Positions 11,590-55,390 of a stretch of DNA of 64,000 nt are shown piece by piece; within the stretch, counting starts at the first letter, position 1, and the number at the start of each line of letters is the position of its first letter. The notes under the pieces were generated by a model. The model worked only from the letters and a program-made list of their open reading frames with translations. It had not been told where the DNA came from and did no database searches. Location: NCBI RefSeq assembly GCF_024502345.1, contig NZ_JALDNN010000001.1, one strand, 5' to 3'. The position numbers and the translations under genes were made by a program. The stretch is from Escherichia coli. Its GTDB lineage: Bacteria; Pseudomonadota; Gammaproteobacteria; Enterobacterales; Enterobacteriaceae.

Positions 11590-11907
11590 ACGTAAACTAC
11601 TCTTTTACTAATTTTCCACTTTTATCCCAGGCGGAGAATGGCATGGGTTTCTGGTACAGATACCCCCGAGCCTGAACACATCCTAATTTAATTAATTCGC
11701 GCGCAACGTCTTCGCTCTCTACGCCTTCCGCAATCACCGGGATCCGGTTATAGCGTGCCAGATCGAAAATAATGCGCACAATTTTTCCCGCAGTACCGAA
11801 AATATCGCCGGTAAATTGCGAGTCCACCTTTATGCTGTCTGGATTAATTTCATAAAAACGTTTCAGGTTTGACAAACCGGTGCCAAAGTCATCAATCGAT
11901 ATCCGTA

Positions 11908-11916
11908 CCCCTTGTT
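11908..11916. repeat. IS1 target-site duplication, copy 1 (CCCCTTGTT)
   Basis: 9-bp sequence identical to 12685-12693 immediately outside the IS1 ends. Confidence 0.9.
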
Positions 11917-11931
11917 GGTAATGACTCCAAC

Positions 11932-12435
11932 TTATTGATAGTGTTTTATGTTCAGATAATGCCCGATGACTTTGTCATGCAGCTCCACCGATTTTGAGAA
12001 CGACAGCGACTTCCGTCCCAGCCGTGCCAGGTGCTGCCTCAGATTCAGGTTATGCCGCTCAATTCGCTGCGTATATCGCTTGCTGATTACGTGCAGCTTT
12101 CCCTTCAGGCGGGATTCATACAGCGGCCAGCCATCCGTCATCCATATCACCACGTCAAAGGGTGACAGCAGGCTCATAAGACGCCCCAGCGTCGCCATAG
12201 TGCGTTCACCGAATACGTGCGCAACAACCGTCTTCCGGAGCCTGTCATACGCGTAAAACAGCCAGCGCTGGCGCGATTTAGCCCCGACGTATCCCCACTG
12301 TTCGTCCATTTCCGCGCAGACGATGACGTCACTGCCCGGCTGTATGCGCGAGGTTACCGACTGCGGCCTGAGTTTTTTAAATGGCGGAAAATCGTGTTGA
12401 GGCCAACGCCCATAATGCGGGCGGTTGCCCGGCAT
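11932..12435 (-). CDS. insB: IS1 InsB (transposase catalytic part, expressed as InsAB' by -1 frameshift)
   Basis: 167-aa ORF overlapping insA in the -1 frame. Confidence 0.88.
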
Positions 12436-12629
12436 CCAACGCCATTCATGGCCATATCAATGATTTTCTGGTGCGTACCGGGTTGAGAAGCGGTGTAAGT
12501 GAACTGCAGTTGCCATGTTTTACGGCAGTGAGAGCAGAGATAGCGCTGATGTCCGGCGGTGCTTTTGCCGTTACGCACCACCCCGTCAGTAGCTGAACAG
12601 GAGGGACAGCTGATAGAAACAGAAGCCAC
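12354..12629 (-). CDS. insA: IS1 InsA (transposition inhibitor, N-terminal part of InsAB' transposase)
   Basis: 91-aa ORF with zinc-finger (CPSC...CSHC) and HTH; A6C frameshift motif near its 3' end (12371-12380 on + strand). Confidence 0.9.
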
Positions 12630-12684
12630 TGGAGCACCTCAAAAACACCATCATACACTAAATCAGTAAGTTGGCAGCATCACC

Positions 12685-12693
12685 CCCCTTGTT
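12685..12693. repeat. IS1 target-site duplication, copy 2 (CCCCTTGTT)
   Basis: 9-bp sequence identical to 11908-11916. Confidence 0.9.
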
Positions 12694-14899
12694 TACGCAG
12701 TTGTTCAATATTGAGATAAAAATGTTCATTAATTCGCTCGATCACGGTTTCAGTGATCTCAACACAGAGGCTGTTCGCCTTCAGGCCATTTTCTTTCATG
12801 ATGGTGGTAAAACGCTCATGAAAGTGCGGTTCGTTTAACTGCCAGGGCGAAACATTAATATGCAGTAAGAAATCATCCTTCAGCGACGCACGCTGACTAA
12901 AATGTCTGAATTCACCCATTGCCGTTTTAATAATCTGATAACCCAGCTCAATGATAAACCCGATATCTTCAGCAATGGTAATGAACTTCAGCGGTGAAAT
13001 GATCCCCCGCTCCGCAGAAACCCAACGGCACAACGCCTCCGCGCCCAGAATGGCGCGGGTGTTAATATCAACGATCGGTTGATAGACGAGGAATAGTTCG
13101 CCAATTTCCATTGCATGGCGAATATTACGCGCAATCCAGATATTCTCTTCTATTTCATTGAGTTTCGCGTCATCACAGAAAATAAACTCGGAGAACATAT
13201 GGTCACGGATACTGGAAATCGCCAGTTTCAGTTTTTCTGCGTAACTCCAGGCGTTTTCCCCCTGCAAAGGTTCACAAATGGCAGACTTATGGATGCGCAG
13301 ATTGCGGTAGCCAAAGCTGCTGTCAAAATCGTTTACCATCGCTATTTTACGGGTAAATGTCTGTACATTTTCCCGACACAGAAGTAAATAGAGATCGGCA
13401 TTGAATGTCACGATATCGCAGCATTGCGCATATTTCTCGGCAATTCGCTGACACAATTTCCTGACGATTTTATTGCGTTCATCAACACCAAACACCGCTT
13501 CCACGGCTTCCAGACCACACAGTTTGATGATCCCCACAGCCAGATACTGATTATTGTTGGACTCAATAATCGCCATATTTTTAATAAAACCGCTTTCCTG
13601 ATCGTAAGAGATCAGTGAGAGCAATTTATTTGACCGTTCAATTTCGGCATCTTTCATTTCCGCGATCGAATTTTTGATGCTGATAATCTCTTTCGCATCG
13701 CCTTCGCGAATTTTCAGAGCCTCGATCTGATCCGTTGAGTCGGGCAAAAACGCCAGCGTATTAACCAGCTCGGTCATTTCAGAAAATTGCCGACGGAACA
13801 CACGAGTGGTCATGAAATATACCACCAGCAACACGATAATAATGAACGCAAACGGTAGATAAAAAAGTTTATCTGATGCGTTCAATAAATTACCGCCAGG
13901 ATAATAAAAATAGATTTCGAACAATGCATTATTTGGCACTGCTGATGTCTTTGCAATATACTCCGTATCGACAGAATCAATAATATTATAATTACCTTCG
14001 CTATTATAAATAATCAGTTTTTCACGAGCGAGTTGATTCTTGGCAATGATCTCATGACCTTGTTTCAAAAATAGAACTTCATCATTAGCGCTGATTTGAT
14101 CAAGATACTCGTTCAAATACCGCCAGTTTAAATCGACATGAATTTTATCTACCGCTAACAAATCGTGATCTTTGCCGTTGATACGTAGCGTAAAAGAGAT
14201 ACATTTTTTACCCGGACGATCAAAGCAATTGTATGCCGGATTCCAGCTGTTGTTAGAGTCATCTGAAGCCACCGACCACGGTCGTTTCGATGGGTTAAAA
14301 TCGGCAAAAATAACCCGCCCTGACTCGTCGACAAGCGGTCCATTTACTTGTTCCTGATGATAAACAACGATTTTATCATTCGCCCTCCGTGAAAAGAGAT
14401 AATATTTATTATCATCAAGTACCAGTCCCACCGAGTCTAAAAATGGCATCATTTCCATTTTCAGAATCACGGCGCGTTGAATCTCCTCTGTATTTTTTAA
14501 TAAATACAGTGAGTCCTTTAATGTCAGGGCCGAACGTTCAATATCTTTAAAGAAATAGCCAACGTTTTTCTGAATAAGTTCAAAGCGGCTATCGGCACGT
14601 TTTACCGCGCGTTCCGATACCAGTTGATAGTTAATGATGAAAAAAAGACCAATAAATGACAGTGCTGCCAATAAAAATAAAATTATCAGCCTTATCTTTA
14701 TCTTTTCGTATAAACTCAGCATGTTAATACATTTAACAAAATAACTATCTGAACGCTGTGCCGCTGCAAAAATAGTCCCTTGCTGCGGCTTTTTAACCAA
14801 ATTACCCGATTCTACAAAATCAGCAGAAAGTTACAACACTTGCTTAGGGCAATAATTTCCTGTGAGGTGATTACCCTTTCAAGCAATATTCAAACGTAA

Positions 14900-15811
14900 C
14901 TATCCTTTAATTTTCGGATCCAGCGCATCGCGTAAACCATCGCCCAACAAATTGAACTCCAGTACGGTCAGAAAAATAGCCAGGGCCGGAAAAACAGCGA
15001 CATGCGGCGCGATAACCATATCCGCTCGTGCCTCATTGAGCATTGCTCCCCACTCTGGTGTCGGCGGCTGCGCACCGAGGCCGAGAAATGACAGGCTGGC
15101 GGCAGAGATAATCGAGGTGCCAATGCGCATGGTGAAAAACACCACGATAGACGAGACGGTCCCAGGCAAGATATGACGCAATAAAATGGTCATATCGCTG
15201 GCACCAATACTGCGTGCTGACTCAATAAAGGTTTGCTGTTTCAACACCAGCGTGTTGCCGCGCACCAGTCGGGCAAACGCGGGGATGGAAAAAATGGCGA
15301 CTGCGATAATCACGTTAGCAATGCCGCTTCCCAACACCGCAACAACAGCGATCGCCAGTAAAATACCCGGGAAGGCAAACAGCACATCGCAAATGCGCAT
15401 GATCAGCCGATCCCACCAGCCTTCATAATATCCAGCCAACAAGCCCAGCAACGTCCCGATCGCCGCACCGATAAACACGGCAAACACGCCCGCCGCCAGC
15501 GAGATTTGCGCACCAACCAGGACACGGCTGAAAATGTCGCGCCCCAGTGAATCGACGCCAAACCAGTGCTGCAAAGAAGGTCCGTTATTCAGATTGTCAT
15601 AATCAAAATAATTTTCGGCGTCATAGGGAGCGATCCAGCGTGCAAAAATGGCCACCACAATCAATAAAATAACGAATAATGCGGCGGTCATCGCCATATG
15701 CTGACGGCGAAATCGTCGCCAGAATTCATGCCACGGTGTACGCACCTGGTCAGGTTTGACCAGTGGCATGGCGTTTAACACCGCCTGACGTCGCCAGTTA
15801 AATAGTCGCAT
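14900..15811 (-). CDS. gsiD: glutathione ABC transporter permease GsiD
   Basis: 303-aa ORF, DppC/OppC-type permease. Confidence 0.9.
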
Positions 15812-15813
15812 CC

Positions 15814-16734
15814 TTACTTGTACCTGATAGCCGGGTTAATGGCGGCGTAAAGCACATCCACCACTAAGTTGATAAGAATAAATTCCAGCGAGAAAAGCAG
15901 AATTTCCGCCTGAATCACCGGGTAATCGCGCATTTCTACGGAGTCAACGAGTAAGCGTCCAAGTCCGGGCCAGTTGAAAACTTTCTCCACCACGATAGAA
16001 CCACCGAGCAAAAAGCCAAACTGTAAGCCCATCATGGTCACTACCGGGATCATCGCGTTACGTAGCCCGTGTTTGAGGACAACCCAGGTTTCGCTCACCC
16101 CTTTCGCCCTCGCGGTACGCATATAATCTTCGCTTAAAACATCGACAAACGACGCGCGGGTAAAGCGCGCCATCACGGCTGCCACTGCCGCGCCGAGCGT
16201 CAGGGAGGGTAAAATGTAGTGCTGCCAACTGTCTGCTCCCACGGTAGGCAGCCAGCCCAGTTCAACGGAGAATACCTGAATTAAAAGCATCCCCAGCGCA
16301 AATGCCGGAAACGAGATCCCCGACACCGCAATGGTCATACTCAATCGATCCGGCCAACGATTACGCCAGACGGCGGCGATAATTCCCGCCGCCATACCAA
16401 ATATCACCGCCCAGACCATACTGGTTATGGTCAGCCACAGCGTTGGCATAAAGCGGCTGGCAATCTCATCGGCAACCGGACGACGCGACACCATCGACAG
16501 GCCAAAATCCCCCTGCACAGCATTGCTGATATAGTGCCAGAACTGGTGATACAGCGGCTGATCCAACCCCAGCTGCTGACGCACCAGTTCTATAACCTGC
16601 GCATCAGCTTCGGGCCCGGCAATCAATCGCGCCGGATCGCCGGGCAGCATATGCACAAATAAAAACACCAGCACCGAGACGATAAACAGCGTCGGAATCA
16701 ACCCCAGTAAGCGTTTGATAACGTAATTAAGCAT
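15814..16734 (-). CDS. gsiC: glutathione ABC transporter permease GsiC
   Basis: 306-aa ORF, DppB/OppB-type permease. Confidence 0.9.
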
Positions 16735-16751: not shown

Positions 16752-18290
16752 TTATTGCAAATCCGCGTCTTCAAAGCTGAAGCCGGTGTCTGGCATGATC
16801 CAAAAACCGGTCAGGTTTTTACTGTGTGCCGACACCAGTTTTTCTACCACCAGCGGGATCCACGGCGACTCTTGCCAGATGATATCCTGCGCCGCCTTAT
16901 ACAAGCGGGTCTTTTCCGCCGGATCATTAGTTTTCAGTGCCTGAGCCAGGAAGTCGTCCACCTGTTTATTGCTGTAAAATGCGGTATTAAACAGCGTCGG
17001 TGGCCAGTTTTGCGAGGCGAACAGTGGCGATAGCGCCCAGTCCGCTTCGCCGGTTGAAGCCGACCAGCCAGTGTAGAACATCCGCACGCCGCTCTCTTTT
17101 TGCCCTTTACCTTCAACTTCTGCCGCCCGCTGTCCGGCATCCATCGCGGTCACCTGGGCTTTAATCCCGACCTGCGCTAACTGCTGCTGGGTAAATTGCA
17201 GCACTTTCTGCGCGGTGCTGTGGTTATGTGACGACCACAGCGTGGTACTGAAACCGTTGGGATATCCCGCCTCTTTCAGTAATTCGCGCGCTTTCACTGG
17301 ATCGTAAGGCCACGGTTTATAACTTTGCGCGTAGGCGATACTTGGCGGTACCACACCAGTAGCTGGCGTTGCATAGCCCGCAAAGGCAACTTTCACCAGC
17401 GCCGGACGGTTAATGGCGTAATTCAGCGCCTCACGGACCTTCGGGTTATCGAACGGCTTTTGCGTCACGTTCATACTGATATAACGCTGCATAATTGACG
17501 GACTGGCCATCAACTCGATATTTTTGTTTTTCTCCAGCAGTGTGGCCTGCTCGTAGGGAATGGGGAAAGCAAACTGCGCTTCACCGGTTTGCAGCATTGC
17601 CGCGCGGGTGTTGTTATCCGCCACCGGACGCCAGGTTATGCTGTCCAGTTTGGGCAATCCTGGCTGCCAGTAACCCGCGAATTTTTTCACCTTCACAAAA
17701 TCGGTCTGATTCCAGGTATCCAGTTCATACGGTCCGGTTCCCACCGGATGAAAACCAATCTCCTTGCCATATTTTTCCAGCGCTGCCGGTGAAATCATCG
17801 CGGTCGCCGGATGGGCAAGAATATTAATAAACGCTGAGAACGGCTGTTTGAGGGTAATCTTTACCGTTGTCGGATCGATCGCCTCCGTTTTGGCAATATT
17901 CTTATACAGGTTATAGCGTTTAAGATGATTCGCCGGATCGCTGGCCCGGTCCAGATTCGCTTTTACCGCCACTGCGTTGAAATCGATGCCATCCTGGAAT
18001 TTAATTCCTTCCCGCAATTTCACGGTGTAAGTAATGCCGTCATCGGAAACGGTATAACTCTCCGCCAGCACGTTTTTCAGTTTCATCTCTTTATCCAGAC
18101 CGAACAGCCCCTGGTAAAACGATTTCGCTACGGCCTGAGATAACGTGTCATTTGCGTCATACGGATCGAGCGTGGTGAAATTCGATCCTACCGCCACCAC
18201 CACATCTTTGGCAGCGAATGCACAAGATGCCATCAACGCTGTCGCAATGCCCAGCGCCACTAACCCACTACGGTGTACAGCTCTTGCCAT
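16752..18290 (-). CDS. gsiB: glutathione-binding periplasmic protein GsiB
   Basis: 512 aa from ATG at 18290 (track ORF is extended by 89 codons); signal peptide then family-5 solute-binding protein. Confidence 0.9.
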
Positions 18291-18309
18291 TTTATTCTCC
18301 GCCTGAATG

Positions 18310-20181
18310 TTATCTACGCATGAATGCGTATTCTGATTGTGGTTGTGCGACGTAATGCCCCGGCCCGACGCATTGCAACGAGACGGCTGCCACCTCTTCG
18401 CCACGCAGATGAATATTGCTGGGAAGATCGTCCGACAGCAGTACACGCTGCGGTCGTTGTCGGGACGGTTCCGCGACCGGAACTGCCGCCAGTAATTTAC
18501 GCGTATAAGGATGCTGCGGGTTTTCGAAGACCGCGCGCCGTGGACCAATTTCAACAATTTGCCCGAGATACATCACCGCCACACGATGACTAATCCGCTC
18601 TACCACGGCCATATCGTGGGAGATAAACAGATACGCAATGCCGAAATCACGCTGGAGATCGAGCAACAAGTTGATAATCTGCCCGCGAATAGAAACATCC
18701 AGCGCCGAAACGGCTTCGTCGGCAATGATCACTTTTGGATTCAATGCCAACGCGCGAGCAATGCAGATGCGCTGGCGCTGACCGCCGGAAAACTCATGCG
18801 GGTAACGCCAGGCATGTTCAGGTAACAGGCCCACGCGCTCCAGCAACCACGCAACGCGTGCAGCCGCGTCTTTACCTGGCAATAAACCGTGTACACGCAG
18901 CGGTTCGATAATCGAATCACCGATGGTCTGACGTGGGTCCAGCGAAGCGTAAGGGTCCTGAAAAATAAACTGAATATCCCGGCGCAATGCCTGAAGTTTG
19001 CCGGGTGACAAGGTATCGATTCTCTGACCGTTAAAGATAATTTCGCCGCCCTGCGATTCGACCAGGCGCAGCAACGCCCGCCCGGTAGTGGATTTACCGC
19101 TGCCAGACTCACCAACCAGCGATAGCGTTTCGCCAGGCCAGAGATCAAAACTGACTTTCTCAACGGCATGCACTTCCCGCGTTACGCGATTCAACAAACC
19201 GCTGCGCAAAGGGAAACGGGTGACCAGATTACGCACCCGTAAAACAGGTTCGCCATCCACCACCGTTTTCTGCTCGATGGGGGGTTCCTGTTTCGCTGGA
19301 TGTTCAAGCGATATCAACGGGAAACGTCGGGGATAATCTAACCCTTTCATCGCACCAAGTTGCGGAACAGCAGCTAACAGCGCACGGGTGTAAGGATGTT
19401 GCGGTGCATGAAAAATCTGTTCGACGGTACCCGTTTCCACCGCCTCGCCCTGATACATCACCAGTACCCGATCGGCAATCTCTGCCACCACGCCCATATC
19501 GTGAGTGATAAAGATAACGCCCATCGACATCTCTTTTTGCAATACTTTGATTAATTGCAGGATCTGCGCCTGAATAGTGACATCCAGCGCGGTGGTTGGC
19601 TCATCGGCAATCAGCACCGCCGGGCGGCATGACAGCGCCATCGCAATCATCACTCGCTGGCGCATCCCGCCAGAGAGTTGATGCGGATAACGTGAAAGAA
19701 TGGTTTGTGCCTCAGGAATGCGTACCTGATCCAGCATCCGCTTCGCCTCGACCATCGCTTCTTCACGACTGGCGTTCTGATGCAGACGAATTGATTCGGC
19801 AATCTGTTCACCCACAGTAAATACCGGGTTCAGCGATGTCATCGGCTCCTGAAATATCATCGCCATATCCGCACCGCGAACATGGCGCATTTGTGCAGCG
19901 CTCTGCTCGCTAAGTTCAATCACTTCGCGACTGCGCCGCTGCAACAGCATTTTATCGCACTGTACTAAACCGCCCGCCTGTTCCAACAGGCGCATCAATG
20001 CCAACGCAGTCACTGACTTACCGGAGCCGGATTCGCCAACAATTGCCAGCGTCTCACCGCGTTGCAGACTAAAAGAGAGATTGCGGACCGCAGCTATTTT
20101 CTGCTGGTCCTGCATAAAGGCAATATTCAGATTTTCAACCGCCAGCACATTACCGGCATCAAGTTCATCACTGTGTGGCAA
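18310..20181 (-). CDS. gsiA: glutathione ABC transporter ATP-binding protein GsiA (two fused ABC domains)
   Basis: 623 aa if initiated at the TTG at 20181, giving a 14-nt overlap with the iaaA 3' end; two Walker A (GESGSGKS) motifs. Confidence 0.85.
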
Positions 20182-21133
20182 CGGTGTCCCCTTTTTCACG
20201 GTAGATACCGGTGGTTGGCGTATCGCCTGCGTAGCCCCAGGCGCGATACATTCCTTCGGTGTTAAACGGTAGCGCGACATTCCCTTCATGGTCGATAGCG
20301 ATTAAGCCACCGCTACCGCCAAGCGCAGGGAGTTTTTCCATTACTACCCGCTCGCAGGCTTCCGCGAGACTTAATCCGCCGTAATCCATTAACGCGGCGA
20401 TGTCATATGCCGCCAGCGCGCGGATGAAGACTTCGCCCGTGCCGGTACAAGAAACCGCCACACTGGCGTTATTGGCGTAGCATCCGGCACCCACTAAGGG
20501 ACTATCGCCAACTCGTCCGGGTAATTTATTGGTCATTCCGCCTGTGGACGTGGCTGCCGCCAAATTGCCGTCTAAATCCAACGCCACGGCCCCCACGGTG
20601 CCCATTTTCTGTTTTTCATCCAGTGGCGCACCGCTATGGTCGAGGACGGTTGCCCCTTCCTTGCGCGCTGCCAGTAGTTGTTCATAACGCAAAGGCGTGG
20701 AGAAAATCTCCGGCGAGACACGCTCCATGCCACGAGCAAACGCAAAATTTTCTGCCCCTTCGCCAATCATCATCACATGCGGGCTTTGCTCCATCACCAG
20801 CCGGGCGGCAAGAACCGGATTACGCAGATGACTAACGCCCGCCACCGCACCGGCTTTCAGGGTGTTACCATCCATCACACAGGCGTCCAGTTCATGGGTT
20901 TCATCACGCGTAAAGACAGCGCCAATTCCGGCGTTAAACAGTGGACACTCTTCCAGCAGACGCACCGCTTCCGTCACCACATCCAGCGCACTTTCGCCCG
21001 CTTCCAGCATTTTCTGCCCGGTTTCAACAATGGCAGACAACGCCTCAATGTAGCGTAATTCCTGTTGCAGACTCATCTGCGCGCGGCTAATTGCACCTGC
21101 GCCACCATGAATTGCAATGACTGCTTTGCCCAT
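20168..21133 (-). CDS. iaaA: isoaspartyl dipeptidase / L-asparaginase (Ntn hydrolase) IaaA
   Basis: 321 aa from ATG at 21133; plant-type asparaginase family with conserved GT autoproteolysis site. Confidence 0.9.
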
Positions 21134-21336
21134 AGTATTCATCCATTAAGGGTGGCTCGCCACTTTTGCTATAAATATCAGAATTTTTATGAATTACTCA
21201 TTCAATTTTTGAATATAGAAAGATGGATATGGCATGTAAAGGCAGGAGCCAACGCTACGCCCGAGGTGGCATACAGTCTGTGGCGTTTTTCTGACATAAT
21301 AGGCAAATTCGATTTTGCCTCCGCAGGAGTGTTTTC

Positions 21337-23332: not shown

Positions 23333-23415
23333 AGGCCTGATAAGACGCGACAAGCGTCGCATCAGGCATTTGCTCCAGACGCCAGATGCGGCGTGAACGC
23401 CTTATCTGGCCTACG
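23333..23415. repeat. REP elements (BIME-type pair) downstream of moeB
   Basis: aggcctgataagacgcgacaagcgtcgcatcaggc and gccagatgcggcgtgaacgccttatctggcctac, typical REP palindromes. Confidence 0.8.
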
Positions 23416-23499
23416 GTTCGGGCACAGATTTCCAAGCGCGGCAGGCATCGGTGCACTCCGCCACGTCATCAGCAATTTATGAGGATGCAGAACGTCCGG

Positions 23500-49997: not shown

Positions 49998-50120
49998 GTA
50001 GGACGGATAAGGCGTTTACGCCGCATCCGGCAACAGATGCCTGATGCGACGCTACCGCGTCTTATCAGGCCTACAAAATCCGAACCGTTGGACGGATCAG
50101 GCGTTTACGCTACGTCCAGC
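49998..50120. repeat. REP element cluster (three REP-like palindromes) downstream of ybiJ
   Basis: gtaggacggataaggcgtttacgccgcatccggc, gcctgatgcgacgctaccgcgtcttatcaggcctac, ggacggatcaggcgtttacgctacgtcc. Confidence 0.8.

Positions 50121-55239: not shown

Positions 55240-55390
<151 letters not shown>

Follow-up and report, generated by a model that had tools for sequence, protein, structure and literature searches.

Background

Translational coupling by termination and re-initiation is a recognised property of certain gene pairs in bacterial operons, with trpE-trpD and trpB-trpA as the textbook cases. The overlaps usually found in such coupled pairs are of 1 or 4 nt (ATGA, TGATG). A model in which gene overlaps arise through loss of the stop codon of the upstream gene was reportedly put forward by Fukuda, Nakayama and Tomita in 2003.

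An overlapping gene pair is formed by iaaA and gsiA, the latter encoding the ATPase subunit of GsiABCD, for which ATP-dependent import of glutathione is documented in the literature cited in PMC10355420. In Escherichia coli K-12, gsiA (b0829, formerly yliA; U00096.3 and RefSeq) has a TTG start, codes for 623 aa and overlaps iaaA by 14 nt, and the E. coli strain analysed here shares these features. The TTG start of gsiA is already known, as it has stood in the K-12 reference record since 2014, is used throughout RefSeq and is supported by ribosome profiling. Over 549/551 of the junction bases queried, the identity with K-12 is 100%. The present strain is another E. coli strain, and two residues of its GsiA are not those of the K-12 protein; the overall identity is 99.68%, one of the three mismatches being the TTG-encoded Leu against Met. 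The operon is CysB-dependent and is induced when sulfur is limiting or when glutathione serves as the sulfur source.

The present analysis concerns a stretch of E. coli DNA of 64,000 nt (contig NZ_JALDNN010000001.1 of assembly GCF_024502345.1), hereafter referred to as the window. An earlier note, made from the letters of this DNA, had proposed that gsiA is translated from a TTG inside the 3' end of iaaA rather than from the ATG of the longest open reading frame, that the resulting overlap fits translational coupling, and that non-ATG starts with overlaps are easily mis-annotated. The start site, the origin of the overlap and the case for coupling are considered below with the help of ribosome-binding site energies, comparison with relatives, protein family models and published initiation data.

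Methods

A scan of species-representative genomes provided at least 80 loci, Salmonella and Klebsiella not being among them. Twenty-four relatives were tabulated, namely those in which the protein alignment reaches the N-terminus of GsiA, together with a few in which the start is clear from the junction sequence. Duplex energies of the candidate Shine-Dalgarno (SD) sequences were calculated with the 3' end of the 16S rRNA. RefSeq annotation, protein records and the NCBIfam model were consulted as mutually dependent sources. A full-text literature search on the gsiA start codon and ribosome profiling returned nothing relevant.

Results and discussion

Organisation and prevalence of the iaaA-gsiABCD locus

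All the coordinates and numbers of the earlier note were verified in the window, where iaaA and gsiA both lie on the minus strand, as do all the features described below unless stated otherwise. The first gene of the cluster, iaaA (21133..20168), encodes the isoaspartyl/beta-aspartyl peptidase of 321 aa. Its product scores 714 bits against the NCBIfam equivalog NF007589 (cutoff 567), aligned over positions 1-321 of 321, and an N-terminal peptide is on record for the 321-aa form of IaaA. The gsiA coding sequence (18310..20181; 623 aa, TTG start, TAA stop), encoding the fused double-ATPase subunit of the glutathione ABC importer, comes next, with boundaries identical to those in RefSeq. The remaining importer genes lie downstream on the same strand: gsiB (18290..16752), for the binding protein, after a gap of 19 nt; gsiC (16734..15814), for a permease, after a gap of 17 nt; and gsiD (15811..14900), for a further permease, after a gap of 2 nt.

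Within the longest open reading frame in the gsiA frame (20289..18310), which begins with an ATG and codes for 659 aa, the TTG start (20181..20179) is codon 37. The iaaA stop codon TGA (20170..20168) spans codons 4-5 of gsiA, and the two genes share 14 nt (20168-20181; TTGCCACACAGTGA) that are read in two reading frames. The lengths proposed for the ATG-initiated and the TTG-initiated products and the extent of the overlap all match these coordinates. On the minus strand, the junction reads GAA AAA GGG GAC ACC G and then, from the start codon of gsiA onwards, TTG CCA CAC AGT GAT GAA.

A promoter-like site, TTTACA-17-TATATT (21212..21240), lies upstream of iaaA; it is a consensus match only, at 10/12 positions, and a promoter and terminator scan of the region gave no more sites in total than shuffled sequence does. 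A terminator-like hairpin on the plus strand (20169-20186) was rejected, being the mere antisense of the SD region of gsiA; the 14-nt overlap leaves a terminator no space between the two genes.

The junction is present in nearly every E. coli genome. A 66-nt junction sequence was found in 5425/5426 complete genomes (5127 at an identity of at least 99%), and a 551-nt stretch across it occurs at an identity of at least 95% in 5425/5426. RefSeq places the gsiA start at this TTG, with the 14-nt overlap, in 6/6 E. coli genomes inspected, which include MG1655 and strains with variant junctions. The exact 623-aa GsiA of the window is recorded, under the name GsiA, on 893 contigs; the 656-aa form is on record once, as a metagenome gene call, and the same search of protein records gave no hit to a 659-, 629- or 612-aa form of this allele.

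The ribosome-binding site and the candidate starts

It is highly probable that gsiA is translated from the UUG at 20181..20179, positioned by an SD sequence, to give a 623-aa product; this estimate covers the start codon with its SD and excludes coupling. A ribosome-binding site, for which the earlier note had advised a search, is indeed present before the TTG in the form of AAGGGGA (20193..20187), which lies within iaaA codons 314-316 at a spacing of 6 nt from the start codon. With the 3' end of the 16S rRNA it forms an anti-SD duplex of -7.8 kcal/mol, the best of the six candidate starts, and an SD as strong as this stands upstream of just 3.8% of the 5904 ATG, GTG and TTG triplets in the window. 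The 6-nt spacing also lies within the 5-9 nt expected of an SD-dependent UUG start.

The five other in-frame candidates compare poorly with this 623-aa start. These are ATG 20289 (20289..20287; 659 aa) with an SD duplex of -1.5 kcal/mol, ATG 20280 (20280..20278; 656 aa) with -4.8 kcal/mol at zero spacing, GTG 20199 (20199..20197; 629 aa) with -3.1 kcal/mol, GTG 20148 (20148..20146; 612 aa), which is the start in the 2006 K-12 record, also with -3.1 kcal/mol, and ATG 20115 (601 aa) with +0.4 kcal/mol.

Comparative and protein family evidence for the start site

The codon homologous to the TTG is an NTG in 24/24 enterobacterial relatives (TTG in 7, GTG in 9 and ATG in 8), the TG of the start codon being invariant in their alignment and the Pro-His-Ser that follows it being conserved among them. 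An SD of the AAGGRG type precedes the homologous start in 23/24 relatives, with duplex energies between -5.5 and -12.9 kcal/mol. Ten relatives have a stop in the gsiA frame 3-12 codons before the start, and no N-terminal extension is therefore possible there.

Substitution patterns on the two sides of the start were compared in 7 Escherichia and Citrobacter species. Over the 120 nt upstream of the TTG, iaaA codon position 3, equivalent to position 2 of the gsiA frame, accounts for 31/38 variable sites (binomial P = 1.3e-9); the amino acid sequence of the extension is thus free to change. Past the overlap it is gsiA codon position 3 that holds the excess (29/58 sites), and the 14-nt overlap itself is without a variable site in these species.

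The family model places the N-terminus at the same codon. GsiA scores 1377.8 bits against the GsiA equivalog NF007613 of NCBIfam (cutoff 1077), and profile positions 1-623 of 623 correspond to residues 37-659 of the long open reading frame, which is exactly the TTG-initiated protein. The protein contains the ABC_tran domain in two stretches and the oligo_HPY domain in two stretches, and aligns to Rv1281c over two domains. A solved structure of GsiA that would show its N-terminus was sought and only homologues were found; in the solved homologues the ATPase domain begins 4-5 residues from the N-terminus, a point that aligns to residue 45-48 of the long open reading frame.

Published initiation data

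Tetracycline ribosome profiling (TetRP) by Nakahigashi et al. 2016 (PMC4909307) moved the initiation site of yliA/gsiA by -33 nt to the TTG (Table S2, row 8), with signals of 46.3, 140.5 and 70.6 at the TTG against 0, 0 and 2.98 at the GTG start of 2006, and the site so derived is that of the 2014 GenBank record. The search covered 60 nt on either side of the old start, and the upstream ATGs, which lie 99 and 108 nt before the TTG, are outside its scoring (PMC4909307). Its authors caution that starts inside translated upstream genes can carry contaminating signal (PMC4909307), and the gsiA TTG does lie within the translated iaaA. The peptide column of the TetRP table, where a GsiA N-terminal peptide was looked for, is empty for gsiA (PMC4909307), and the accessible portion of the TRAINSPOTTER tables holds no gsiA entry.

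Two other data sets are silent at this codon. In vivo Ribo-RET gives zero signal at the gsiA TTG, in values as tabulated in the INRI-seq paper (PMC9825163); this method verified just about 18% of the annotated starts (PMC9825163). In the cell-free INRI-seq assay the gsiA fragment, a synthetic one carrying 30 nt of upstream sequence, was represented at 151 CPM and gave zero signal at the TTG in five replicates (PMC9825163). INRI-seq verified about 70% of the annotated starts and missed about 30% of the genes; peaks were detected for gsiB, gsiC and gsiD, and iaaA went undetected (PMC9825163). As iaaA also went undetected, the negative result for gsiA is not specific to gsiA. The complete Table S3 of the same study contains no alternative gsiA start (PMC9825163). 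For profiling of initiation, which the earlier note had recommended with retapamulin among its options, the results at the TTG are divided: TetRP shows signal there, while retapamulin Ribo-RET is zero at gsiA.

Alternative start sites

The view that a 659- or 656-aa form, initiated at ATG 20289 or ATG 20280, is a real product or a second isoform beside the 623-aa protein has in its favour that the gsiA frame is open from 20289, that the 656-aa form has been called once in a metagenome, and that TetRP did not score these ATGs. Their SD sequences are, however, poor or mis-spaced, and the ATGs are not kept even within Escherichia, where E. albertii lacks the first and three lineages lack the second. 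The closed upstream frame of the ten relatives and the absence of constraint seen in the 31/38 variable sites at gsiA-frame position 2 also speak against an extended product, and neither the family model nor the solved homologues have space for a leader of 36 residues, which makes such a form very improbable. A start at GTG 20148, just past the iaaA stop, was the annotated one from the 2006 K-12 record until that of 2014 and would abolish the overlap with iaaA altogether. The near absence of TetRP signal at this GTG, the lack of any alternative gsiA start in INRI-seq and the SD energy of -3.1 kcal/mol all weigh against it; three relatives, Escherichia SCPM and two species of Citrobacter, have GTA or GTT in its place, and PHSDELD, the residues before it, is conserved as protein across genera. 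This start is already contradicted, and is even less probable than the long forms. The least credible of all is GTG 20199, which precedes the TTG by six codons. This GTG is in frame and falls inside the TetRP search range, but the TetRP analysis picked the TTG and lists no second candidate for gsiA; the codon also has no proper SD (-3.1 kcal/mol) and is replaced by GCG in E. coli CX15, Escherichia SCPM and E. albertii and by GGG in Citrobacter.

The TTG inside the 3' end of iaaA, as put forward in the earlier note, is therefore upheld as the start of gsiA by the agreement of RefSeq annotation, the family model, published TetRP data and comparative sequence. The warning that overlapping non-ATG starts are easily mis-annotated is illustrated by the 2006 K-12 record itself, which used the GTG 33 nt downstream (612 aa). 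The historical error at gsiA was a start too far downstream, giving too short a protein, which is the opposite of the overlong ATG form feared in that note.

Origin of the overlap

In most of the scanned loci, in Enterobacterales and Burkholderiales alike, an iaaA homologue lies directly upstream of gsiA. The end of iaaA differs among the relatives in a manner that shows how the overlap arose. Codon 314 of iaaA is AAA (Lys; 20194..20192) in the window, and Escherichia and Citrobacter read GAA AAA GG at this point, while the gene ends with GAA TAA GG in eight lineages, namely Leclercia, Enterobacter MGH24, Lelliottia, Phytobacter, Superficieibacter, Pseudocitrobacter, Siccibacter and the metagenome-assembled genome CTSoil_132. 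In these eight, iaaA terminates as TAT CGT GAA TAA, with the stop against the SD and some 10 nt short of the start of gsiA. The gene continues in Escherichia and Citrobacter for 8 further codons (Lys-Gly-Asp-Thr-Val-Ala-Thr-Gln) to a TGA inside gsiA. Other genera show iaaA/gsiA overlaps of 1, 4 or 8 nt, or gaps of up to 19 nt.

The widespread TAA at codon 314 most simply represents the ancestral state, and the overlap is therefore the product of a single stop-codon loss. On this comparison of sequences, the 14-nt overlap is a derived trait shared by Escherichia and Citrobacter. The sampled loci map the reach of this loss in part, Salmonella and Klebsiella being outside them.

Initiation mechanism and possible translational coupling

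In the mechanism we propose, AAGGGGA, at 6 nt from the UUG, positions either a 30S subunit or a ribosome fresh from translating iaaA; the same letters encode Lys-Gly-Asp of IaaA. The 36 upstream codons of the gsiA frame, with their two ATGs, lie outside the protein. The ancestral TAA of iaaA, which stood in the SD region some 10 nt ahead of gsiA, mutated to AAA to give the present arrangement.

Some part of gsiA translation may well come from ribosomes that terminate on iaaA and re-initiate with the help of the SD. Such coupling is suggested by the position of the iaaA stop, 11 nt past the UUG, and by the weakness of the start codon, which is TTG or GTG in 16/24 relatives. The junction is also tight, between a 19-nt gap and a 14-nt overlap, in 22/22 tabulated relatives with iaaA upstream. 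Coupling thus fits the anatomy of the junction and is plausible. Initiation at the same UUG could instead be wholly de novo, driven by the strong SD independently of iaaA, the overlap being a neutral by-product of the stop mutation; this reading is a serious possibility, with a somewhat less than even chance. The strength and correct spacing of the SD argue for it, as does the conservation of the SD both in overlapping pairs and in pairs 9-19 nt apart. No stable RNA structure that would require opening is found at the gsiA start, and the INRI-seq negative, shared with iaaA and arising in an assay that misses a sizeable part of the genes, is non-specific. The tightness of the junction in every tabulated relative with iaaA upstream, the weak start codons and the silence of the isolated fragment in vitro in spite of a signal in vivo are, however, less expected of purely de novo initiation.

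A masking RNA hairpin over the gsiA start was considered and rejected: the minimum-energy fold, which pairs ACCGGUAUC with GAUGCCGGU around the start, does not exceed shuffled sequence in stability (z = -0.5 and -0.08) and thus provides no evidence for a hairpin that needs iaaA translation to open it. The arms of this stem are not complementary in Citrobacter.

The sole hint towards coupling in the published measurements is the lack of a cell-free initiation peak from the isolated gsiA fragment, as against the TetRP signal in vivo.

A stronger form of the coupling hypothesis holds that gsiA of Escherichia and Citrobacter depends strictly on ribosomes terminating at the iaaA UGA and sliding about 11 nt back to the SD-flanked UUG, and that the change from TAA to AAA rewired the ratio of IaaA to GsiA compared with genera in which the stop comes before the start, Enterobacter among them. 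Strict dependence, if true, would account for the silence of the isolated fragment in vitro against the signal of the native mRNA in vivo. We regard it as unlikely.

Significance of the start site

The gsiA start is of little importance beyond annotation hygiene. It does serve as a worked example of the longest ATG-initiated open reading frame being a poor guide to the true start, and of comparative sequence being able to settle a start codon through start-codon turnover at a fixed position, stops in the upstream frame and substitution patterns by codon position. It likewise illustrates how one stop-codon mutation can make adjacent genes overlap. If coupling were shown, the overlapping and non-overlapping alleles would form a natural pair for relating junction geometry to the stoichiometry of operon products.

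Comparison with known systems

The 623-aa GsiA resembles the fused double-ATPase subunits of other peptide-type ABC importers, such as YejF, OppD of M. tuberculosis (Rv1281c, PDB 8j5q) and DppD (8wd9), which like GsiA have two ABC_tran domains, each followed by an oligo_HPY domain. The first ATPase domain lies a few residues from the N-terminus in GsiA and in these homologues alike. GsiA exceeds the cutoff only of its own equivalog model and scores 582 bits against the YejF model, whose cutoff is 834.

At the level of the gene pair, iaaA-gsiA is like the known translationally coupled pairs in that the two genes lie on one strand, the stop is a few nucleotides from the start and the SD lies inside the upstream coding sequence. 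It is unlike the usual ones in its 14-nt overlap and in the position of the stop, 11 nt past the start, with the consequence that a terminating ribosome would have to back up to reach the UUG. Set beside the stop-loss model of Fukuda, Nakayama and Tomita, the iaaA/gsiA junction, with its change of TAA to AAA and run-on to the next in-frame stop, shows no difference in kind and constitutes a clean single-nucleotide example.

Initiation and start choice in the iaaA-gsiABCD cluster

INRI-seq, a cell-free assay of initiation sites carried out on K-12 fragments, has no initiation peak at either the iaaA ATG (21131-21133) or the gsiA TTG (20179-20181), and peaks are present in the same assay for gsiB, gsiC and gsiD (PMC9825163). 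Coupling, that is the proposed re-initiation at gsiA by ribosomes terminating on iaaA, offers no explanation for the missing INRI-seq peak at the ATG of iaaA, which is the first gene of the cluster.

The longest ORF of iaaA begins at ATG 21142 and encodes 324 aa (MNTMGKAV...), the annotated start being ATG 21133 with a product of 321 aa; in a published N-terminomics table, a peptide of 16 residues is given for the 321-aa IaaA. The gsiB gene is a further example of the longest ORF as a misleading guide to the start, its longest ORF (16752-18557, 601 aa) being initiated at TTG 18557 inside gsiA and the annotated form at ATG 18290 (512 aa), with the gsiA stop 19 nt before it.

C-terminal tail of IaaA

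Residues 314-321 of IaaA in E. coli form an eight-residue C-terminal tail, KGDTVATQ, which is present solely because an ancestral TAA stop has been changed to AAA (20192-20194). In E. coli strain F11, the iaaA codon 314 is AGA.

Insertion sequence in pdeI and comparison with strain E2865

The phosphodiesterase gene pdeI/yliE (11597-14800, minus strand) is split by an IS1 of 768 bp (11917-12684), whose InsA and InsB lie at 12629..12354 and 12435..11932, respectively, and is thereby broken into pieces of 706 aa and 92 aa. The pdeI sequences flanking IS1 overlap by 9 bp on the coordinates of strain E2865, which is the expectation for IS1 target duplication.

Rfam matches to the REP-derived small-RNA families, two to naRNA4 and one to ES036, were obtained at 23334-23411, 50001-50071 and 55304-55346. 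About 100 bp between fsa and moeB (23353-23452) are present in the window and absent from strain E2865. Two IS621 copies of E2865, at sites equivalent to about 30162 and 50072, are without counterpart in the window. The segment 50061-55333, which corresponds to the E2865 region annotated as ybiA, dinG, ybiB and hcxB, lies in the orientation opposite to that of E2865, and this inverted segment is bordered in the window by naRNA4 and ES036 repeat elements.
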